Assembly: GCF_004010195.1 (NCBI RefSeq)
Contig: NC_057718.1
Span: forward strand, 91,620,634 to 91,673,625
Source of the DNA: Chiloscyllium plagiosum
Lineage: Eukaryota
Direction of reading: 5' to 3'
Length of the DNA stretch: 52,992 bases
Positions 1,780-35,849 of this stretch are shown piece after piece. Each line of letters opens with the position of its first letter. Position 1 is the stretch's first letter. The position numbers were made by a program, and so were the translations under genes. Under the pieces are notes generated by a model. The model did not search any database, was not told the DNA's origin, and saw nothing but the letters and a program-made list of their open reading frames with translations.

Positions 1780-4700
1780 GGACACAAGAAATCTGGCCCT
1801 TTGAGCCTGCTCCGTCATTCAACAAGATCATGGCTGATCTTTTCGTGGCCTCAGCTCCACTTAACTGCCCTCTCACCGTATCCCTTAATTCCTTCACTGT
1901 TCAAAAAATTATCTATCTTAGCTTTAAAAACATGTACTGAGGAAGCCTCAACTACCTCACTGGGCAGGGAATTCCAGAGATTCACAACCCCCTAGATGAA
2001 GAAATTCCTTCTCAATTCTGTCCAAAATCTGCTCCCCCTAATTTTGAGGCTATGCCCTTTTGTCCTAGTTTCACCCGCCAGTGGAAACATCCTCTCTACT
2101 TCTATCTTATCTACTCCCTTCATAATTTTATACGTTTCTATAAAATCCCCCCCTTCTAAATTCCAATGAATATAATCCCAACCTACTCAGTGTCTCTGCA
2201 TAAACCAACCCCTTCAACTCCAGAATCAACCTAGTGAACCTCTCTGCATCATTTCTTGTGCACAAGTAAGGAGACCTCACCAGCATCCTATACAGCTGCA
2301 ACATCACCTCCTTGCTTTCAAACTCAATCCCTTTAGCAATGAAGGACAAAATTGTATTTGCTTTCTTAATTACCTGTTGCACCTTCAGGCCAACCTTCCG
2401 TGATTTATGCACAAAAACACCCAGGTCCCTCTGCACAGTAGGATGCTGCAATTTCTTAAGATTCAAGTAACAGGCCTTTTTACTGCTATTGCTACAAAAT
2501 GGATGACTTCACATTTATTAACAATGCACTCCATGTGCTACAGCTTCGCAAAATTTCAAAGTCCTCTGCACACTTTGCTCTACCACTCAGCTCAGTGTCA
2601 TCCGCAAACTTTGAAACATGACACGTGGTCCCCAACTCCAAATTATCTATGTAAATTGTGAATAATTGCAGTCCTAACACTGATCTCTGAGGCACACCAC
2701 TAGTCACCGATTGCCAACCAGATTTCCACACTTTGCCTCCTGTTGGTTAACCAATCGTCTATCCATGCTCTTGGTGCTTTGCATCTTTATCTTATGCAGC
2801 AGCCTTTGTGTAGCACCTTGTCGAATGCCTTTTGGAAATCTAGACATACCACACCTACTGTGTCCCCGTTGTCCACAGTGTTCGTAATGTCTTCATAGAA
2901 TTCCAAAAGGTTAGTTAAGCATGACCTGCTCTTCATGAACCCATGCTGTGTCTGTCCAATGGGACAATTTCTATCTAGATGCCTTGCTATTTCTTTCTTG
3001 ATAATAGATTCAAGCATTTTCTCTACTACAGACGTTAAGCTAACTGGTCTATAATTCCCCATCTTTTGTCTACCTTCCTTTTTAAACAGTGGCGTCACAT
3101 TTGCTGTTTTCCAATCTGTGTGAACTGCCCCAGAGTCCAGTGAATTTTGGAAAACTACCACAAGTGCATTTGCTATTTCTCCTATCATGTCTTTTAGCAC
3201 CCTGGGATGCATTCCACCAGGACCAGGAGTTCTGTCTACCCTTCGCTCCATTAGCTTTCCTAACACAATCTGTTTCGTGATAATGATTGTTTCCAGGTCC
3301 TCACCTAACGTCACCTCTTAGTCAATTTCTGGCATGTTATTTGTGTCCTCCACTGTGAAGACCTACACAAAATACCAATTCGATACCTCGGCTATTTCCT
3401 CATATCCCATCACTAAATCCCCCTTCTCATCCTCTGAACAACCAATGTTTACTTTAGTCACCCTAATTTTACATATTGATAGAAACTTTTGCTATCGGTC
3501 TTTATATTCTGAGCGAGGTTTTCTCATAATTTATCTTATTTTCCTTTATGGCTCTTTCTGTTGAGCTTTAAAGCTTTCCCAATCTTCTAGTTTCCCGTTG
3601 ATCTTGGCCACTTTGTATGCCTTCTCTTTCAATTTGATAGCCTCCATTATTTTCTGAGATACCCATGGCAGATTACTCCTTTTCCTACAGTCCTTCCTTT
3701 TCATTGGTATATACTTTTGCTGAGCACTTTGAAAAATTGCTTTGGAAGTCCTCCACTGTTCATCAACTGTCCCACCATAAAGTCTTTGCTTCCAGTCTAC
3801 TTTAGCCAACTCCTCCCTCATCCTATTGTAGTCTCTCTTGTTTAAGCACAGGGCCCAGGTACTGGATTTCAGCTTCACACTTTCCATCTGTATTCTAAAT
3901 TCAACCATATTGTGATTGCTCCTTCCAAGAGGATTCCTAACTATGACATCATTAATTATTCATGTATTATTACACAGGACCAGATCAGTTGCAGAAAACA
4001 ATTCAAGAAAACTATTGTGGTTACATTCAATGAACTCCTCCTCAAGGATACCCTGACTGACCTGATTCGACCAATTGATATGTAGATTAAAATCCCCCAT
4101 GATAATTGCTGGATCATTTTACAGGACTAGTTATTTCTTTGTTTATTGCCTACCCCAATGTGATGTTATTTGGTGCCCTATAGACTATACCTATCAGTGC
4201 TTCTTCCTTCTTAGAATTTCTAATTTCCAGCCAAATGGATTCAACCTCATTCTCCAAAGAATCTATATCCTCTCTCACCATCACCCTTACCTCCTTGTCT
4301 GTCCTTCCAAATGGTATGATACTCCTGGATATTTAACTCCCAAGTTGTGACCATCCCGCAACCTTGTCTATGCAATGGCAACTAAATCATATTCATTTGC
4401 GATGATTTGTGCCATAAACCCATCTATCTTATTACGAATGCTATAAGCATTCAGGTAAAGTGCCCTGGTGCTAGTTTTTGTACCCTCTTTATGAATTCCA
4501 ACATCTCCAATAATAATATCTCCTTCCTTTTTACTTCTTTTATAGTCTGCCAAGTTAAACCCTCCTGCACATATGCTAACCTGCTGTTTTCCTTTTTATT
4601 TGTCACCATACTTCCTGTTGTTTTCTCCTTCCCTTCCCCCTGATTCATTTGGTTAAAGTCCAAGTGACCACCCTATTTATCCTTTTCACTAGAACACTGG

Positions 4701-6084: not shown

Positions 6085-6583
6085 ATAAGAAGAGCCGAAA
6101 GAACTGCAGATGCTGTAAATCAGAAACACAAACAGAAACTGCTGGAAAGGCTCAGCATTTCTGGCAGCATCTGTGAAGAGAAATCAGAGTTAACGTTTCA
6201 GGTCTGGTGACCTTTCCTCAGAACTGATGGTAGCCAGGAAAATGCTGTTTTTTTTATACAGAAGATAGGTTGGGGGAGGAGGTACAGAGCAAACGATAGG
6301 TGGAGATAGAGCCTAAAGAGAGAGAAGAATAATTGGACAGACAAAAGAGCGGATAATGATCTGACTAGGAGGGTGAATGGGGGCCGGGGGTAGGAAGAGG
6401 GGGAGCGAGTGAGAGCAAAAGAGAATCCTTAGGGGAAATCAATAGCTGCTAATTGGGACAATTTGTAGCTGACAATGAGATTGTTGTGATAGCAGCTCAA
6501 ATGATGACAAGGCTGGTGTGCGGAGGTTCGGATAAACACATGGGAGAAAGTACTTAGGCTCTAAAATTATTGAACTTGAGATT
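6085..6583 (-). mobile_element. Penelope-like element 3' end / pseudo-LTR
   Basis: Minus strand starts with the ORF terminus NLKFNNFRA* (6583-6554), followed by a pyrimidine-rich UTR, a hammerhead motif and the agatgctgcc...ccagca...cagcatctgcag tail. Confidence 0.7.
6188..6225 (-). ncRNA. Minimal type I hammerhead ribozyme, intact core
   Basis: AGUU-CUGAGGA-A-AGGUC-acca-GACCU-GAAA-CG-UU-AACU: 4-bp stem I, 5-bp stem II, palindromic ACGU in place of stem III. Confidence 0.8.
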
Positions 6584-6879: not shown

Positions 6880-8480
6880 ATAAATCTGACATTTTTGACA
6901 CCGAGAAATGCAAAGAACAGTACAAGTCCCAAAGAATGGGACAAATGCAAAGATCAAAGGGCCACAAAGCCGCTACAAAGGATTATGAAAGCAAAATGCA
7001 TGGGCCATAAAGATGATAAAAGGATCTTTTATGGTTATATAAAGGAGAAGCACCCATTTAAGAGGACTATTGGCCCACTAAAGGCTGAGAGTGGGACTGT
7101 TCCCATGATCATGGAAAAATGGCAGACATGCCGGACGATCATCTTATTTCAGTATTCACAGCAGAAAAGGAGGATAGTTTGCCCGATGTCCCAAAAAAAC
7201 TTGAGGATAGTGACCAGGTCTAAATAAAATTAGCTTAAGTAAATCGTCAATATTGGATAAATTAATGGAAGTGAAAAGTGACCAGTCCCTAAGACCTGAT
7301 GGTTTCCATCCATGCGTGTTAAAGAAGGTAGCAGCACATTGCTGATTGTCAGGACATGACTAGTGCTGTTTCACAGGGATCTGTACTGGACCCGAATTAT
7401 TCACAATATTCATTAATAATTTGGATAATGGCAGAAACAGCAAATTATCCAAATTTGCTGAAAACACAAATTTAGGCAGCCAGTGTTGAGGACAGCATAA
7501 AAGTACAACAGGATAGATCAAGTGGGGCAGTCTCGAACTAGAGGGCATAGGTTTGGGATGAGATGGACCTAATGGAAACCTTTTCATGCAGAGGGTGCCA
7601 AAGGAAGTGGTGGAGGCTGGTACAATTACAACGTTTAAAAGGCATCTGGAGGGTATATGAATAGAAAGGGTTTAGGGGCATATGGTGCTGGCAAATAGGA
7701 CAAGGTTAATTTAGGATTACTGGTTGACATGGAAGAGTTGGACCAACGGATCAGTTTTTATACTGTACATCTTCATGACTCTAAGTGAATGCGCAAAGCT
7801 GTGGCAGATGATTTTAATATCAGCAAGTTTGAGGTTATCTATTTTGGACAAACAAAGGATAGATCAGGGATTTTTTTTTAAGAAGGTGCGAAAAAAATAT
7901 ATTGGATGTCAAATGAGATGTGGGTGTTCAGTTGTAAAGCTTGTTAAACTGCACGAACAAGTGCAGAAAATAGTCAAGATGGCTAATGGAATGCTGGCCT
8001 TCATATCTAAAGGGCTGGAGTACAGTGATATAGATTTTATGCTGCAGTCATACAAAATCCTACTTAGACCTCGCCTGGAATACTGAGAGTAGATCGAGGC
8101 ACCACATTTAGAAAGGATGTTTTGGCCCTGGACAGAATTCAATGTAGTTTTATAAGGATGACATCTGGACTGGTTAAGTTACGAGGAGAAATTATACAAA
8201 TTAAGCCTTTTTTCTCTATAATTAAGAAGGTTAAGGGATGACCTAATACAGTTCTTAAGGATAGTAACAGGGAAAGATGATAGATAATGATAAATTATTT
8301 CCACTGATTAAAAATTCTAGAACGAGGGGCATAATCTCAGAATTATTGCTAAGGCTTTCAGGAAGGATGTTAGAAAAACAGGCATATGTAATTAGGCCAC
8401 AAAAGAACCATGATCTTGCTGAATAGTGGAGCAGGCTTGAAGGGCTGAATGGCCTACTCCTATTCCAATGTCTCTGATAA
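6880..8480 (+). mobile_element. Decayed CR1 LINE ORF2 and 3' end
   Basis: KRIFYGYIK..IGPLK, SKFA.NT and KMANGMLAFISKGLEY..RPRLEY pieces; 3' end gggctgaatggcctactcctattcc. Confidence 0.85.
7525..7783 (+). mobile_element. CR1 3' fragment of a second subfamily, nested inside the 6880-8480 CR1
   Basis: gaagtggtggaggctggtacaattacaacgtttaaaaggcatctgga...tgtacatct..atgactcta; same family as 33550-33730; the host RT resumes afterwards. Confidence 0.75.
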
Positions 8481-19110: not shown

Positions 19111-19702
19111 CTATTGAGTGGCAGAACTGCACAAGATAGAATAAACAGCAGAGAAACAGGATATTTGTATCAAAGGTGCATGCTGATGTATCCAGTTTAT
19201 ACAAGCTTCATCCTACTCTATTTCTTTCTATTACTCCTTTCTTGTGTTTACATCAGGTTTTTCCTTAAATGTGTCAATGCTACATGTATCAACCGTGTTG
19301 AGGATCTTCTACTAAATGTTTTTTTCATCTTAGTGACTATTTTATATTTATGACCCACCATTTCAGTTTTCCATGTTGACTCCTACAATCTGCTCCATAA
19401 TTTTGAAAGCTTCCATCTCACTTCCATTTCAACTTGTTTTTACCCAAATTAAAAATCAGTCAACCTTTAGCAACAACAACATCCTCTCAACCTTTGTAAT
19501 ATATTTATATGTTTTTCTGTACCAGTGTTTCGAGGTCTTTCAATTTTTAAAGTAACACACTTTTCTTTTGAGGGTGGTGGCATTCAGCATACACTAAGTC
19601 AAGAGCAAAACATATTTAAAAGTCATGTAATTCCTAGTTAGCAGAGGACAGCCAATGAGCTAGAGGCCTGATCAGAGTGGGATGGCCAGCATGCCCAGTG
19701 CA

Positions 19703-19742
19703 AGGTTCCTGAAGAAGGGCCTGTGCCCGAAACGTCGAATCT
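19703..19742 (+). ncRNA. Minimal type I hammerhead ribozyme, intact core
   Basis: AGGUUC-CUGAAGA-A-GGGC-cugu-GCCC-GAAA-CG-UC-GAAUCU: 6-bp stem I with one GU pair, 4-bp stem II, GUC cleavage triplet. Confidence 0.85.
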
Positions 19743-19797
19743 CCTGTTCCCTGGATGCTGCCTGACCTGCTGTGCTGTTCCAGCAATAAAGTTTCAA
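19707..19797 (+). mobile_element. 91-nt PLE-derived mini-insertion (hammerhead + AATAAA) with 11-bp TSD
   Basis: Flanked by cagtgcaaggt at 19696-19706 and 19798-19808. Confidence 0.85.
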
Positions 19798-22700
19798 CAG
19801 TGCAAGGTGGGGTTGGTTGTTGGACTGGGGACTGGTGAAGGTGGTCAGTGTCCTAAGAGTCTGGTCAGACCAAGTGTGGAAGCCCCCTGCATTGATCTTC
19901 TGCAGGCCTTTTATAGAAAGGTCAAAAGGTTTTGTTTTTAAACTGTATTTCTTATTTTTCTACATTATACTGTATGGGAATGTAATTTTTTAAATCTTTA
20001 TTTCTCTATTTTGTATCTAAGATCTGTACCCAGGTATTTTTTACCCAAGATGGCACAGTGTGCAGCAACACTGTAAACATTTCTCTGTACTCATGTGCTT
20101 TTGTAGTTGAGTACGTGACAATAAACCAAATTTTAATTCTAGTTTGACTACTGTAGGTTGTAGCTCTAATGCGTACGCTGAAACTGGTAAATACATTTCG
20201 AAGAACTTCAAAATAATTTTGTCTGCAAAAAATCTGAAGTTTAGAATTAATAAGTATTTCTAAAATAGAAAAATAACACTAACTTTTTTCTGCAGTGGAG
20301 GACAATGGGATTTTTTGAGATGACAATATTTTTCATGAATAGCAGAAAATCACAACAGTTCAAGACACAATTATCACCGTCTTCAGTGATTTCTTCCATG
20401 GGATAACAAGATCATATTAATATGCAAAACCTTAAGAACAGAGAGACTGATAATCATTCATTTAATACAAAATGAGAACAGGATGGCCATCTCATTTCCA
20501 CATAATGAAAAAAATGAGGTATTTACTCATCATAAAGTAGGGAGCATTTTCAGCCAAAAAAAATTTGAGATTCTCTAAATGTATTTTCAGCTTTGGAGAA
20601 AAGAATTGTATTTAATTCCATCTGGCCAAAAGTAGAAGAATAAGTAGGCAGCATAGATTTTATTTTAAGCATGAGTATGGCATCCATAAGAGTTTAATGT
20701 CAAAACTTGGAGGTAAAAACATAGGTTGCAATTTTTATTTAAAAAAAGCTTAGTTGAAAATGAATTTTGAGCTCTAATTTTAAAAAGTACCCTGGTTCCA
20801 TTTAAAGTAGCTGACTTAAGACAACAATTTGGAAATAGAATGGAATTTTAACTAAAATTACGAGATTGCAAAATGACTCAATGCTAAATATTCAGAGATT
20901 AAAATCTGTACAATGTTAATTTTCAAATTAATTAGAAGAACCTTTTCAAAGTCAGAACTTTGTTTTATCATTATGATATTTGGATATAGTGCCCAACACA
21001 GGCAAGAAGCAAAAATTCGAGTGTATTATCATCCAAATAGAGTTTTCAGATTATTCAATGAAAGAGACCCACTTTCTTTATTGTATACAAGTAACAGCTA
21101 TCTGTCAGAGGGGTGCAATAATTAGCAGATGGGATCTACAATCTATTTCACAAAAACTACTCATCAAACATATTTTGGGTAAAATGCCAGGATTTTGTTG
21201 CCTTATGATGAAATCAGAAACACATATACTATATGAAAGATGTACAAGTATCACAAGATTCACCTGAACTGAGCAATGTCTTTATGAACAAAGTAAGACC
21301 AAATGAAAGAGAGGCAACTTGCATATTTGCAACAGCCTTCTAATCCTAGCCCCAAGCCATACTGTGCAGTCAGCCTGTCTATTACAAGGCAACAATTAGG
21401 CGGCCTGAGCAGAACACCTGGTACTTTCAATCCTGAGCCTTCTGTGGCAGCTGAGTGCAAACAACTCCATGCAAGTAGTTGTGCCTCTCAACACTGACTT
21501 GCCAGTCTGGGGTAGATAAAGACAATTTTTTTTTCCCCTGCGACTTTGAAAGCCATTCATCATTTCTAATTAAACAAAATCCTTAAAATGGTTTGCTGGT
21601 CTTAAAGTGTAAATTCCAATGTCTCCATGCAATTGTACTTGAAATGTGTTCAGATTCTAATAAAATTGAGTACAAAATGTCATTTAACATCTGTGGAATA
21701 AACTTTCAATGAAATTAGAACTGTCTCTAAATCAGAATGTTTATAATATTAAATGAATCTTTACGGATCATAAAACATTCCATCATATTCTCACTACTAA
21801 CTGAAGAAAATTGAAGACTAATTTTCAACTTTGATGAAAAAGTATGATCATCATCTTCAATTCCAGAGCTGCTTTCGATTATCAGTTGAAAAGTTTGTGT
21901 GGATATAACATCGTATTTGTTGCTGGTATTTTTCAACACATGCTGAAATAGTGTTACCGAAGGTTATAGAATTCTAAATTTTATCACACATGATAGTTTT
22001 TTATGGCCTACACAATGTCATTGCAGATGTTTTTAGTGCAATGCTTGTTTTTAGTTATAAATAATTTTTCTTTGTATCTGGTTGTCCATTCATTTTTGTT
22101 TCAAATGGAGGTTAACCAGAATGTCACTGTACCCCACCTTTGCAAGATGCGACTACAAAGTCCAATAAAAATGCACCCACATACAGCTTGCGCTCTTCAA
22201 CAACTCAAAACAACAGTGTTTGTCTATAAAAAATGAAAATGTGAGTATTAACACATCAAAGCCCATTATTATGTAAGAATATAAAAAAATTGCATGATGT
22301 ACACTTTAATCTTTCTGAAAACCTATGCACAGATTCAACTGAAATTTATTTTTCACAATGAATGCTAATACCTTTTCAGAGGAGAGCCTTTCTATTGCAG
22401 CAGGCAGGGAACGTGATATGGACCAAAGACATTATCAAGGCCTTTGAACTGTTTAAAACTGTATCAAAGCGAAAATGATAAATAATTAACTGCTGCTGTA
22501 TCTCAGCACACAATGGTTTTAAACACATTCTTTTCAGTAGGTTCCACATTAAAAACATCTAGGAACTGATAGAATGTGGGATTTTGGTAATTAACACAGA
22601 TGCATGACCACCAAAAAAAGAACAAATCATTATATAGAGCAAAGCTGGTGAGGAAAACCTCTGTCGTACTCTGAAAAACAGCCTGCGAGAGGCAGTGCAA

Positions 22701-27689: not shown

Positions 27690-28350
27690 AACCATCTTCT
27701 TAAGTGCTGTGTATGATGCCAACCAGCAGGGAGCTTGCCCCAATACCCATTGACTCCAGTTTTGTTAGGGCTCCTTGATGCCATAACTCAGTTGAAAGGG
27801 GCCTCGATATCACACTTGGTCGAATGCAGCTTTGATGGCAAGGGGTGACACTCTCATCTCATCTCTGGAATTCAGCTCTTTTGTCCACGTAGCAATCAAG
27901 GCTGTAATGAGGTCAGGAGCTGAATGGCCCTGGTGGAACCCAAACTAGCTGCCACTTTACAGCACCATTAAATTATACCTTCCATCACTTTACTGATACT
28001 TGAGATTATTCTGATGGGGGTGCAATTGGCTGGGTTGGATTTGTCCTGTTTTTATGTACAGGACATACCTGGGCAATTTTCCACATAGTTGGGTCACTAA
28101 TATTGTAATTGTACTGGAAGAGCTTGGCTATGGGAGCAGTAAATTCTGAAGCATAAGTCTTCAGTACTATTGACAGTATGCTGTCAGAGCCCATAGCCTT
28201 TGCACTATCCAATACCTCCAGCTGTTTCTTGATATCATGTGAATTAAATTGAATTGGCTGAAGACTGATATCTGTGATGCTGGAGACCACTGGAGGAGCC
28301 AGAGATAGATATCCACTTGGTTCTTCTGGCTGAAGATTGCCACATGCCTG
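27690..28350 (-). mobile_element. CR1/L2-clade LINE RT fragment
   Basis: ORF 28006-28386: DIKKQLEVLDSAKAMGSDSI..LKT.A.E...P.AKLFQ..WKIAQVCPVHK. Confidence 0.85.
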
Positions 28351-28486
28351 CATGATAACTGAAAAACAAATCAAGAAGCAGTGCATTGTGTGTCTCTGTT
28401 TGCTACTCTTGAAAACTCTTCAATCTGCTTAGATGTTCCATCTGCTTGATGACATTACTGCTGCTGGGTGCCAGAGATCCTTTACA

Positions 28487-29387
28487 ACTTCAAAGCTTGT
28501 GAGAAGATTTGTAGCTCGGATGCTAGTCCTTTGGGTTGTGGCATGTCCTCGTTCCCAGCTCGACGAACAGAACCACAACAACGAGCACCCGAGCTACAAA
28601 TCTTCTCACAAACTTTGAATACCTACAGGCGAGAGACGCTAAGACAAGCCAGGAAATGGGAATCCTGTGCCAACCGCCTAAGCGCCACATACGAACAACT
28701 CCGGTTCCTGCATGAATGCCCAAAGAATCGAATCCTTCCACCATGTGTCAGATGCAGATCACCAGTCAACAACCCACAAGCCAGGGACATAGCCAGACAG
28801 AACGGATTCAGGATGATCCAGGTAATGATTACAGACGCTCACAACAGACTTCACAAATACAGACAAGAAATTGCGCCCCAAAAATCGTTACAAAGGACTA
28901 GCCACACTACCATACATCAAGAGCAATTCCAAACTGACAGCCAGACTACTGCGACCACTAGGACTCATAACAGCACACAAACCAACAGCCACTCTCAGAC
29001 AACAACTCACCAGAACGAAGGACCCGATACCCAGCATGAGCAAAACCAATGTAGTGTACAAAATCCCATGCAAGGACTGCACAAAACACTACATGGTCCA
29101 GATCGATGTGCTTCTTGATTGAATCTGTGGATGAGTGCCATTGCCTCTAGGAATTCCCTGGCTGATCCACAGACTCGATCAATAAGCACATCGACCTGGA
29201 CCCAATATACCGACCACTGCAACGGACAGCTGGAACTGACAACCGGAAGCGGCAGATTCAAACCACTACAAATGCCGGAGGAAAGATCACAGAAGCGCTT
29301 CACAGGAGGCTCCCAAGCACTGAGGATGTCACGTAGACAGGGGGCGTCTACAACACAAATTCCCAACTCGGCGAACAGAACCACAAC
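28487..29387 (+). mobile_element. Rearranged, RT-deleted Penelope-like retroelement
   Basis: N-terminal ORF (RQARKWESCANRL..LRFLHEC) joined to the linker/GIY-YIG start (TLPYIK..RLLRPLG..AHKPT..VVYKIPCKDC..Y); pseudo-LTR end gaacagaaccacaaca at both ends; TSD atcctttaca at 28477-28486 and 29388-29397. Confidence 0.92.
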
Positions 29388-29782
29388 ATCCTTTACATCT
29401 GATACATGAAACAAATTACAAACAAGAAAGGGAACGTTCATGACATAGACATTATGGACCATGGGTCTTCAAGATCAGATATAAGTGCCTTTCATTTGTA
29501 ACTGATTGATCATTTTGAGCTATAGAATTTGCCACATGAAACAGATCATTTGGCTTATGTGCTCCGCACAAGCCTCCTCCAGTTTACTTTATCTAATTCT
29601 ATCAGCATATCTCTTCAAATTTTTCATTAAAGCATAAATTTTAATTAAATATTGTCAATAAAATAGAATAGGTTAACAGAGTTCATCCAATATTTTAACG
29701 TTCTTTGATGTTGAGGAGAGTAGCATACATAGATTCTGAGTATACTGTTGAATAGCAGAAGTATGAAAAGACAGCACATGCA

Positions 29783-29904
29783 GAGGTGAAAGTGGGTACT
29801 GTAGATGCTGGAGATGAGAGTGGTGCTGGAAAACCACAGCAGGTCAGGCAGCATCAGAGGAGCAGGATAATTTACCTTTTGGGCAAAAACCCTTCATCAG
29901 GAAT
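29783..29904 (-). mobile_element. PLE-derived short repeat with a decayed hammerhead
   Basis: Minus strand auuc-CUGAUGA-A-GGGU-uuuu-GCCC-AAAA-GG-UA, then gatgctgcctgacctgctgtg..ttccagca as at 19707-19797; GAAA box mutated. Confidence 0.75.
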
Positions 29905-30501
29905 GAGTACTTGCAGAGGGCAGAGTTTTAGAAAGGGAGCATCACTAATCTTGAAAAGTAAACGCTGAAGGAGATACATCCCCTTCCCATCTCAAGCTGG
30001 GTCCTTCCAAGCTTTGACCTCCTTCCCCTATTCCTAAACTCCCCAGTGTGCCTTAACATGTAGATTGGATGGGGACTGGCCATTAAGTGGTCATCAAATG
30101 CTCTCTTCAGAGTCTCAATTGGGCAATGGCAGGCAGGTTTGCCCAAGCCCTTGCTTATCATTGACCACTTATTTTATGGGCCATCTCCAGGTTATTAAAA
30201 ACTTGCTGCTGAGAAATATCAGATCTTTTAAAGACTCCAGTTGGGATTAATATTTACTGAAAAAAAAACACCGTGTACTTGAAAACTGAAGTTAACTATA
30301 TGCAGCAAGATGGCTCTCACGTGAGAAAAGAGGTGAGACAGGTCTGGTATCTTTGTACTGAATGGCCAAGTTTATTTTCACAGGCCATATGGTCATCTTC
30401 TGCTCCTGTCTCCAATATTCTTATGAAAGATAGTTTAAATGCAGTTATATAACAACCTCGAGGTTAGATGTTATCATGCTAGTAAAACCTGCGGGATTTT
30501 T

Positions 30502-33730: not shown

Positions 33731-34180
33731 TTTCGCTCTTTCTTCCTTCAAAATTTAGTCACCATTGATATGTAATAAGTTCAGGTCAAATCAGTTAGAA
33801 ACTGAGGGAGAATTCCTCCCTCCCTGATATGGTATGGGCAACTTCAAGAAAGATGTGAAAATGCAGCAACAGCAAACAAAAACATCAGAATTGCAATGTG
33901 GAGGATAGAGTAACCTTCTTGGTCTTGTACAATTTTGGTTTCGATGATTAACTATAAAAATAAATAGCATGATACTGTGAGGTATTAACCTTTTAACTTG
34001 AGCAAATGATCTTTAATTGATTCTGGACATTTGTTTTAGAATTTGAATATTTAGCTTCTTTTTGTGCTGTAATCATTCTATGATTTGAGAAAGGCAAAAC
34101 TACAAACGTATAAAGTTGTGACTATTTTAAAACAGCAGAGTGTTGTTGTGGTTCTGTTCGCCGAGCTGGGAATTTGTGTT

Positions 34181-34220
34181 GCAGACGTTTCGTCCCCTGT
34201 CTACGTGACATCCTCAGTGC
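34181..34220 (-). ncRNA. Minimal hammerhead ribozyme in the Penelope pseudo-LTR, intact core
   Basis: GCA-CUGAGGA-U-GUC-acguagacaggg-GAC-GAAA-CG-UC-UGC. Confidence 0.75.
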
Positions 34221-34469
34221 TTGGGAGCCTCCTGTGAAGCGCTTCTGTGATGTTTCCTCCGGCATTTATAGTGATTTGTATCTGCCGCTTCCGGTTATCA
34301 GTTCCAGCTGTCCGCTGCAGTGGTCGGTATATTGGGTCCAGGTCGATGTGCTTATTGATTGAATCTGTGGATGAGTGCCATGCCTCTAGGAATTCCCTGG
34401 TTGTTCTCTGTTTGGCTTGTCCTATAATAGTAGTGTTGTCCCAGTCAAATTCATGTTGCTTGTCATCTG

Positions 34470-34720
34470 NNNNNNNNNNNNNNNNNNNNNNNNNNNNNNN
34501 NNNNNNNNNNNNNNNNNNNNNNNNNNNNNNNNNNNNNNNNNNNNNNNNNNNNNNNNNNNNNNNNNNNNNNNNNNNNNNNNNNNNNNNNNNNNNNNNNNNN
34601 NNNNNNNNNNNNNNNNNNNNNNNNNNNNNNNNNNNNNNNNNNNNNNNNNNNNNNNNNNNNNNNNNNNNNNNNNNNNNNNNNNNNNNNNNNNNNNNNNNNN
34701 NNNNNNNNNNNNNNNNNNNT
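34470..34720. other. Assembly gap (251 N)
   Basis: Run of N. Confidence 1.
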
Positions 34721-35849
34721 TCTTCTTCCTCTTTTTGCAGTTCTGGTGTACTGCAGTGCGTTGTGGCCCTTTTGAACAGTGTCTTGATGCAACTTCTTGT
34801 GTTTGTGTTGGGATGGTTGCTTTTGTAGTTCAGGACTTGGTCTGTGTGTGTGGCTTTCCTGTATACCTTTGTGGTGAATTCTCGGTTCGGTGTTCTCTGT
34901 ACCATCAAGTCTAGGAATGGATAGTTTCTAAAATAAAGTATTTCTTGAATACAATTAGACACTGAAGAACGTCAACATATTCATATATGATCGTTGCATG
35001 GAAACAATCATTTTAACTGAACCACTGTATTCCCTTCGAACACCAAATTTCAATGCTGTTTTCCAATATGGAAATTGTATTTATTTAAATTTAAATACTT
35101 AACTTAAAGTATTTCTTGAATACAGTTACCAGAAATAAAAATGCTTGAGACGCAAATGGTAAATTTAAATAAATACAAGTTCCCATTATTGGAAAACAGC
35201 ATTGAAATTTGGTGTTCGAAAAGAATACAGTGGTTCAGTTAAAATTATTGTTTCCATGCAATGTTCATATATGAATATGTTAATGTTCTTCAGTGTCTAA
35301 TTGTATTCAAGAAATACTTTATTTTTAGTACATAAATATCAGGAAATGTAGATCAGGTTTTGAACTTTTGTGTAAATTAATTTAGTTCATTGATTAAATG
35401 TCTGTTTTACAAAAAAGTCAAATTATATTTGCATTGAATGCTCTCTGCAGGTTTAAAATAGCCACAACTTTATAAGTTTGTAGTTTTGCCTTTCTCAAAT
35501 CATAGAATGATTACAGCACAAAAGGAAGCTAAATATTCAAATTCTAAAAAAAATGTCCGGAATCAATTCAAGATCATTTGCTCAAGTTAAAAGGTTAATA
35601 CCTCACAGTATCATGCTATGTATTTTTATAGTTAATCTTCAAAACCAAAATGGTACAAGACCAAGAAGGTTACTCTATCCCTCAAAGGTTCATTTTTCTG
35701 TCATATCTCTGTACTACTCAAACTCTATATCACTTGGAGCTGGAGCAGCAATATAGAATAATTTGAATGTTGCATCTCTTTATGCTGATAGGACAGATCA
35801 TCTCTCAAGCTTTGATTTTACACAGTCTAACCTTTAGATGGAGGATACC

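Follow-up and report, generated by a model that had tools for sequence, protein, structure and literature searches.

The window is the whole stretch of 52,992 nucleotides analysed here, and unsigned positions refer to it. It carries a short insert between two copies of an 11-mer that occurs on the plus strand of the window only at 19696-19706 and 19798-19808. The features of the locus are listed below.

19696..19706, plus strand: left target-site duplication of 11 bp; its final T doubles as the first matching base of the element
19706..19798, plus strand: stub of the pseudo-LTR, or 5' leader, of a Penelope-like element (PLE) provisionally of the Neptune type; 93 of 93 bases identical to the ORF-linked copy L145
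19706..19798, plus strand: the same stub by its ends, running from the putative transcription start, less one base, to the nearer of two fixed 3' ends, with the tail absent
19703..19742, plus strand: minimal type I hammerhead by sequence, fold, and layout as in PMC4209133; cleavage is predicted
19785..19790, plus strand: AATAAA hexamer, a subfamily-specific variant missing from sister families; the copies examined are without A tails
19798..19808, plus strand: right target-site duplication of 11 bp; its initial C doubles as the last base of the element

The element match (19706-19798) overlaps both repeats, leaving a 1-nt microhomology on each side of the insert. The 91 bases of the insert are all identical to those of an ORF-linked copy (91/91), and its three CpGs are intact. 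A first-pass annotation of this DNA had described an insert with a perfect 11-bp duplication and, from its intact CpGs, a young appearance, and both descriptions hold. The annotation also stated that the insert held little besides its motifs, whereas the entire insert is ordinary end sequence of the parent element. The window insert is a real, young, ordinary-looking PLE stub and not a new ribozyme element.

Hammerhead motif and AATAAA hexamer

All of the features of a minimal type I hammerhead are present, namely, the conserved core, stems I and II, and a palindromic stem III devoid of a loop. In the layout deduced from the sequence, CUGAAGA (19709-19715) is followed by one extra A, by a stem II of 4 bp (19717-19720 paired with 19725-19728), and by GAAA (19729-19732), with a predicted cut after C19736. 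The minimum-energy structure of the 40-nt piece consists of stems I and II, with a probability of 0.49. The stability of the 113-nt region is unremarkable (z = -0.74), and stem I disappears when the whole leader is folded computationally. The intact minimal hammerhead reported in the first-pass annotation is thereby retained as a sequence layout and a predicted fold.

Stem I comprises 6 bp in the window (three native pairs and three lent by target bases 19703-19705) versus 4 bp in the parent context, confirming the earlier remark that bases of the left duplication extend this stem. A special meaning of the 6-bp stem was rejected, the extension being an accident of the target site of the window copy. 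The pairing of stem I is kept in a sister family despite different letters. A hammerhead-model search, proposed as a check of the earlier reading, was performed with Rfam and returned no hammerhead match in the gathering or E-value mode. Such an outcome may be anticipated for a motif devoid of a stem III loop.

The AATAAA hexamer had been read as a poly(A) signal. This reading was rejected, since the hexamer is replaced by other words in sister families and the copies examined pass into flanking DNA without an A tail.

Parent element and abundance

Copies in the genome were counted by exact sequence patterns. The 83-nt core of the insert has 9,975 exact copies in the 3.56-Gb genome, versus 0 for the control, and a 19-nt motif from the 3' end of the core occurs 20,016 times genome-wide. 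In four copies (L052, L144, L145, and L149), a GIY-YIG frame runs into an end identical to the insert, and a short 3' untranslated stretch separates the GIY-YIG-ending frame from the hammerhead end in several copies that continue upstream. A sister copy, L148, contains a 654-amino-acid open frame with a reverse transcriptase (RT), a cysteine-rich CxxxxCxxC linker, and GIY-YIG. The matches of this frame to RVT_1 (E = 1.5e-6) and GIY-YIG (E = 2.7e-4) each fall about 1 bit below the Pfam cutoff, and the L052 piece clears the GIY-YIG cutoff.

As judged from sequence, the parent of the insert is a young EN+ PLE, of which the insert represents the end that carries the hammerhead. The Penelope origin suggested in the first-pass annotation is borne out by identity with the ORF-linked ends, and this identity also indicates that there is no separate retrozyme. 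The CxxxxCxxC linker, present in the frames of L148 and L150, resembles the zinc-finger-like cysteine motif described in the RT-EN linker of Neptune and Nematis elements (PMC8557442). The parent is therefore provisionally classed as Neptune type, by a linker motif that Nematis shares rather than by a tree. Pseudo-LTR traits are also present, including the hammerhead, a 35-nt tail in 24 of 40 solo copies, and an inverted arm in 57 of 112 insertions. The optional tail of such elements measures 30 to 40 bp. No intact full-length element was found among 8 long candidates drawn from at least 150 endonuclease matches, most of the long frames corresponding to assembly gaps. In copy L146, a 33-bp unit is expanded about 15 times within the 3' untranslated region of the element.

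The window contains other pieces of related elements. Two older sister-family stubs, at 29783-29907 and 6100-6225 (both on the minus strand), begin near the front of the hammerhead. The latter has TATA-like and initiator-like words upstream and a stem I that is changed but paired. A different PLE family, with another hammerhead stem II and an inverted arrangement, occupies 28450-29390 and 33900-35680 and includes an endonuclease-like frame with a gap (34201-34971). Frames resembling decayed LINE reverse-transcriptase pieces were noted by eye at 2128-3959 (minus strand), 7715-8086 (plus strand), and 28006-28419 (minus strand).

Distribution of the ends of copies

For comparison of copy ends, position 0 was set at the C of CUGA (19709 in the window). 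The end sample consisted of the 3'-motif matches listed first (n = 100), located in the first 17.7 Mb of contig C1; it comprised 101 arms and was chosen irrespective of the 5' end. The 5' ends of these arms were found at -7 to 0 (51 arms), +1 to +9 (17 arms), +15 to +69 (18 arms), and upstream of -8, as far as -319 (15 arms). The pile-up sits where hammerhead stem I begins, the stop rate at -7 to 0 (about 0.10 per nt) exceeding that at +10 to +69 (0.003 per nt) about 30-fold. None of the 101 arms started exactly at the cleavage product (+28) and five started within 4 nt of this position (+24 to +29), leading us to reject a 5' end defined by ribozyme cleavage. About one-third of the copies reach upstream of -4. 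Genome-wide, the match extends a further 12 nt upstream from 4,772 of 13,837 core starts, the former count being somewhat lowered by point mutations. The existence of these copies implies longer RNAs or template jumps.

These data bear on the proposal of the first-pass annotation that the insert might be an extreme 5'-truncated PLE, with other copies running from random 5' ends into a PLE ORF. The insert is indeed a PLE stub in kind, and some copies do enter the ORF, but the 5' ends are sharply fixed rather than random. Ordinary random 5' truncation, stopping by chance just before the ribozyme, would account for the copies that run into the ORF and for the window copy, which has a microhomology joint and lacks the extra G described below; heavy 5' truncation is, moreover, known for PLE insertions (PMC8557442). 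However, chance stops do not predict the approximately 30-fold difference in stop rate or the recurrence of the anatomy of the window copy in 7 of 40 solo copies. Random truncation is refuted for the family by the end distribution, and, although the single window copy may still fit it, we regard it as very unlikely to be the explanation.

At the 3' side, 37 of the 40 solo copies end at one of two fixed sites 35 nt apart. Of these 40, 24 extend through the 35-nt tail, 13 stop at the short end, and 3 stop in between; 21 of the 40 start at -7 to 0, and 20 have a duplication of 7 to 16 bp. A larger set of 112 insertions combined the end sample with loci found with the core, the latter biased toward copies reaching position 0, and comprised 52 solo, 57 inverted, and 3 tandem insertions. 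In 50 inverted pairs, both arms carried the motif; 43 of these combined a short and a tailed arm, 7 combined a tailed and an intermediate arm, and none had two arms alike. A duplication was present in 41 of these 50 pairs, and its length was 13 to 17 bp in 39 of the 41. Two junction types recur at different loci and account for five of the 50 pairs; these five do not represent separate events. Identical breakpoints were found at -149/-76 at three loci (L007/L008, L017, and L071) and at -127/-91 at two loci (L049 and L070); the flanks of these pairs are partly common, and the pairs were apparently mobilized as a unit after their formation.

Relation to retrozymes

The headline of the first-pass annotation was a tiny non-autonomous ribozyme retroelement family. 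In this scheme, the unit would be transcribed, cut, circularized, and moved as a self-cleaving retrozyme by PLE proteins. Discrete ends, target duplications, a very high copy number, and an intact minimal hammerhead are expected features of such a family, and PLE ends are the reported origin of non-LTR retrozymes (preprint 10.64898/2026.07.22.740005). However, the short copies have no private variants. The sequence of the window copy is shared by 37 of 50 short arms (one arm being dropped for an indel) and by 9 of 13 long arms; the mean numbers of differences from the window copy are 0.30 and 0.31 for short and long arms, respectively, and no variant is present in more than two copies. Copy ends do not match the cleavage site, and single minimal hammerheads failed to cleave in vitro (PMC4209133). 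The tandem arrays that had been proposed as a check of the earlier reading were likewise not found, since the 91-nt unit forms no head-to-tail arrays among the 112 insertions and the three tandem groups have longer units. As to cleaved or circular RNA, one run of raw RNA reads (1,147 reads of mixed families, in both directions) listed neither a pile-up of starts or ends nor a back-joint. The window unit itself is a solo copy without its own lineage, in a family whose 5' ends are off the cleavage site. We therefore consider a retrozyme family to be the least probable of the explanations, with a very small chance of being correct.

The arrays that are present in the genome have a 224-bp unit and only 40 junctions. 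They are exemplified by L043 (contig C1, ~16.163 Mb) and L075 (contig C1, ~26.522 Mb), which are head-to-tail arrays of a unit extending from -18 to about +204, with an identical joint; the 40 occurrences of this joint are spread over many contigs. The 224-bp array unit, rather than the 91-mer, qualifies as the candidate for a retrozyme-like element in this genome.

An extra G and the start of the RNA

Position -4, the A of TCATTCC, is also the first base of stem I, 4 nt ahead of CUGA. TCATTCC conforms to the short initiator consensus YYANWYY and is a putative initiator here. In sister families, the A of an initiator-like word falls at the matching position, and one such family, represented in the window at 6193-6221 (minus strand), shows a TATA-like word some 33 nt ahead of its initiator-like word.

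Copies starting exactly at -4 were retrieved with a pattern that excludes a templated C and most plain fold-back joints (1,208 matches). In a hand count of the first 100 of the 1,208 matches listed, the base preceding the start was G in 52 cases, A in 37, and T in 11. The observed frequency of G at -5 (52/100) exceeds that expected from composition (about 24; p = 2e-9), and at the next base out, G was found in 16 of 74 cases. For starts at -3 (1,476 matches), G preceded the start in 7 of the first 100 matches listed, this control being rich in fold-back junctions and hence biased to C. In about 26 non-inverted-looking rows of the -3 list, C precedes the start in about half, as judged by eye. 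Sixteen of the 37 A rows at -4 correspond to one recurrent fold-back joint (16 of 100 rows, contigs C1 and C2), which may be a favored microhomology or a mobile hairpin unit.

Junctions were inspected at 40 of the listed -4-start places. Thirteen solo copies starting at -4 had a duplication, with one clean single G, four fillers ending in G, three Gs inside the duplication, and five without G. A single G separates the duplication from the element in L076 and L158, and G begins both arms of the inverted pairs L168 and L179. The window copy begins at -3 and misses -4 by a single base, with a 1-nt microhomology joint and no extra G. A splice acceptor at the pile-up was considered and rejected, as the sequence has no AG before -4.

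An extra G at the junctions of full-length L1 copies has been read as the mRNA cap (PMC11702581). It is likely that the common start point of the stubs, frequently accompanied by an extra G, corresponds to the capped 5' end of the element RNA. This layout is not general, since Drosophila Penelope starts upstream of the ribozyme, 46 bp before an intron (PMC2377424 and PMC4209133). A fixed, cap-marked 5' stop in PLE insertions was not found in the literature searched, which excluded most subscription journals and Repbase, and a cap-derived G is not treated in PMC11371274.

The same stub could also have been copied from a longer RNA, with no start at -4, if RT stalling or RNA processing at the border of the hammerhead fold set its 5' end and a biased untemplated base were added. 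The pile-up exactly at the first base of stem I and the upstream extension of about one-third of the copies agree with this explanation, as does the run of raw RNA reads described above, in which starts did not pile up; reads of mixed families in both directions make this a weak test. However, RT meets the ribozyme at +31, where a pause on entry would be expected, and only 5 of 101 arms end at +24 to +29. Moreover, stem I is only 4 bp long and does not survive in the fold predicted for the entire leader, and an excess of G was seen only with starts at -4. Stalling or processing is accordingly unlikely, although we give it more weight than random truncation or a retrozyme.

Model for the formation of the stub

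The insert is a very short recent copy of the element end, probably made by an RT that started inside the RNA and then ran off its capped 5' end. From the copy ends, we infer an RNA start site, a cap, and two priming sites. Transcription by Pol II would start at the A of the initiator-like TCATTCC, i.e., at the first base of stem I. The RT-endonuclease protein would introduce a staggered cut of about 13 to 17 nt, as suggested by the copy ends and by PMC11167929. Synthesis of the cDNA would be primed within the RNA at either of two sites separated by 35 nt (+89 or +124), the window copy having used the nearer one. The DNA copy runs through an intact ribozyme, indicating that the template RNA was uncleaved. 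The cDNA would end at the 5' end of the RNA after about 93 nt, often with a cap-derived base, and its attachment to the opposite target end would involve slight trimming, which in the window copy may have removed one base and left an 11-bp duplication. Priming at both target ends would generate a head-to-head pair in which a short arm faces a tailed one, and the duplications would be untrimmed.

Long copies would arise from RNA started upstream or from template jumps, as exemplified by L047, L067, and L079. These three insertions, distant from one another, share a 99% identical stretch located about 900 to 940 bases upstream of the core and composed of LINE-like sequence and a decayed endonuclease piece. 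The stretch joins the element end at three different points, and two of the copies have pieces of the element ORF further upstream. The shared stretches are foreign DNA and were rejected as element body; they represent repeated template jumps to one donor. The window stub was probably dead on arrival, because it has neither the promoter flank upstream nor the sequence that follows the tail. By analogy, stubs in general would not serve as templates, as they do not include the sequence beyond the tail.

We incline, with some reserve, to extend the run-off reading to a "strong-stop" scheme for PLEs. A capped start at the first base of the hammerhead would be combined with RT priming on a sense, uncleaved RNA, 93 or 128 nt from its start, with each cut strand using its own site. 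Most events would end as stubs or mirror pairs, and long copies would require a template jump or read-through RNA. If true, this scheme would unite solo hammerheads, the one-sided tail, and head-to-head repeats. It would also argue against the antisense-template self-priming proposed in PMC3846280 for inverted repeats with a one-sided tail and duplications.

The window locus itself is ordinary; it is a dead stub like thousands of others, and such stubs have been noted in print before. The interest lies in the copy ends of the stub family, which are a record of the copying mechanism of PLEs. The probable capped start at the fixed 5' end with its extra G would reveal how this poorly understood group of elements copies itself. 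The ends lead to testable statements: the template would be a sense, capped, uncleaved RNA, its start would be the first base of the ribozyme, and two RT sites would be used, one per target strand. They also call for caution, since run-off alone can produce solo hammerhead monomers of the sort that are counted as retrozymes.

Comparison with known systems

The parent element resembles the EN+ PLEs of the Neptune clade (PMC8557442) in its single frame with RT, cysteine-rich linker, and C-terminal GIY-YIG and in its pseudo-LTR hammerhead, inverted truncated arm, and one-end tail (35 nt here). The window copy differs in being a terminal stub only. Heavy 5' truncation is described in the publications on EN+ PLEs consulted, where the fixed 5' stop with an extra G seen here does not appear.

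A mechanistic parallel is PAc, a Poseidon PLE of the green anole analyzed in vitro (PMC11167929). In that system, two adjacent internal RT starts define the tail, the protein cuts and extends both target strands and requires RNA downstream of the priming sites, and insertion is independent of ribozyme cleavage. In bulk, no difference between the strands was seen there in the use of the start sites. The present element would be alike in having two RT starts that define the tail, cutting and extension of both strands, and an uncleaved RNA template. The two elements differ in that the PAc ORF begins inside the ribozyme, whereas the likely start codon here, as read from L043, lies about 40 nt beyond the tail.

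Thousands of single minimal PLE hammerheads per genome, read as truncated PLEs, and close hammerhead pairs on opposite strands have already been described (PMC4209133). The window motif shares with these metazoan hammerheads the core, the unpaired base before stem II, the missing stem III loop, and the palindromic 15.2-16.2 positions, but its stem II is shorter (4 bp versus 7 to 8 bp). Animal non-LTR retrozymes (PMC7229834 and preprint 10.64898/2026.07.22.740005) are similar in their type I hammerhead, PLE ancestry, and long target duplications. As described there, they form tandem units, mostly of 150 to 450 bp, and cleaved and circular RNAs, unlike the solo copy studied here, which has no lineage of its own.

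Full-length L1 copies likewise display an extra G where the cDNA meets the capped RNA end, and L1 twin priming, in which both target ends serve for priming, yields duplications that are long and uniform (PMC11702581). L1 primes at the 3' poly(A) of its RNA, whereas priming here would occur near the RNA 5' end, leading to a run-off stub of about 93 or 128 nt. Unlike with L1, both arms of the inverted pairs copy the same leader. In LTR elements, strong-stop cDNA is a short cDNA of the RNA leader, and it is this product that the stub resembles.
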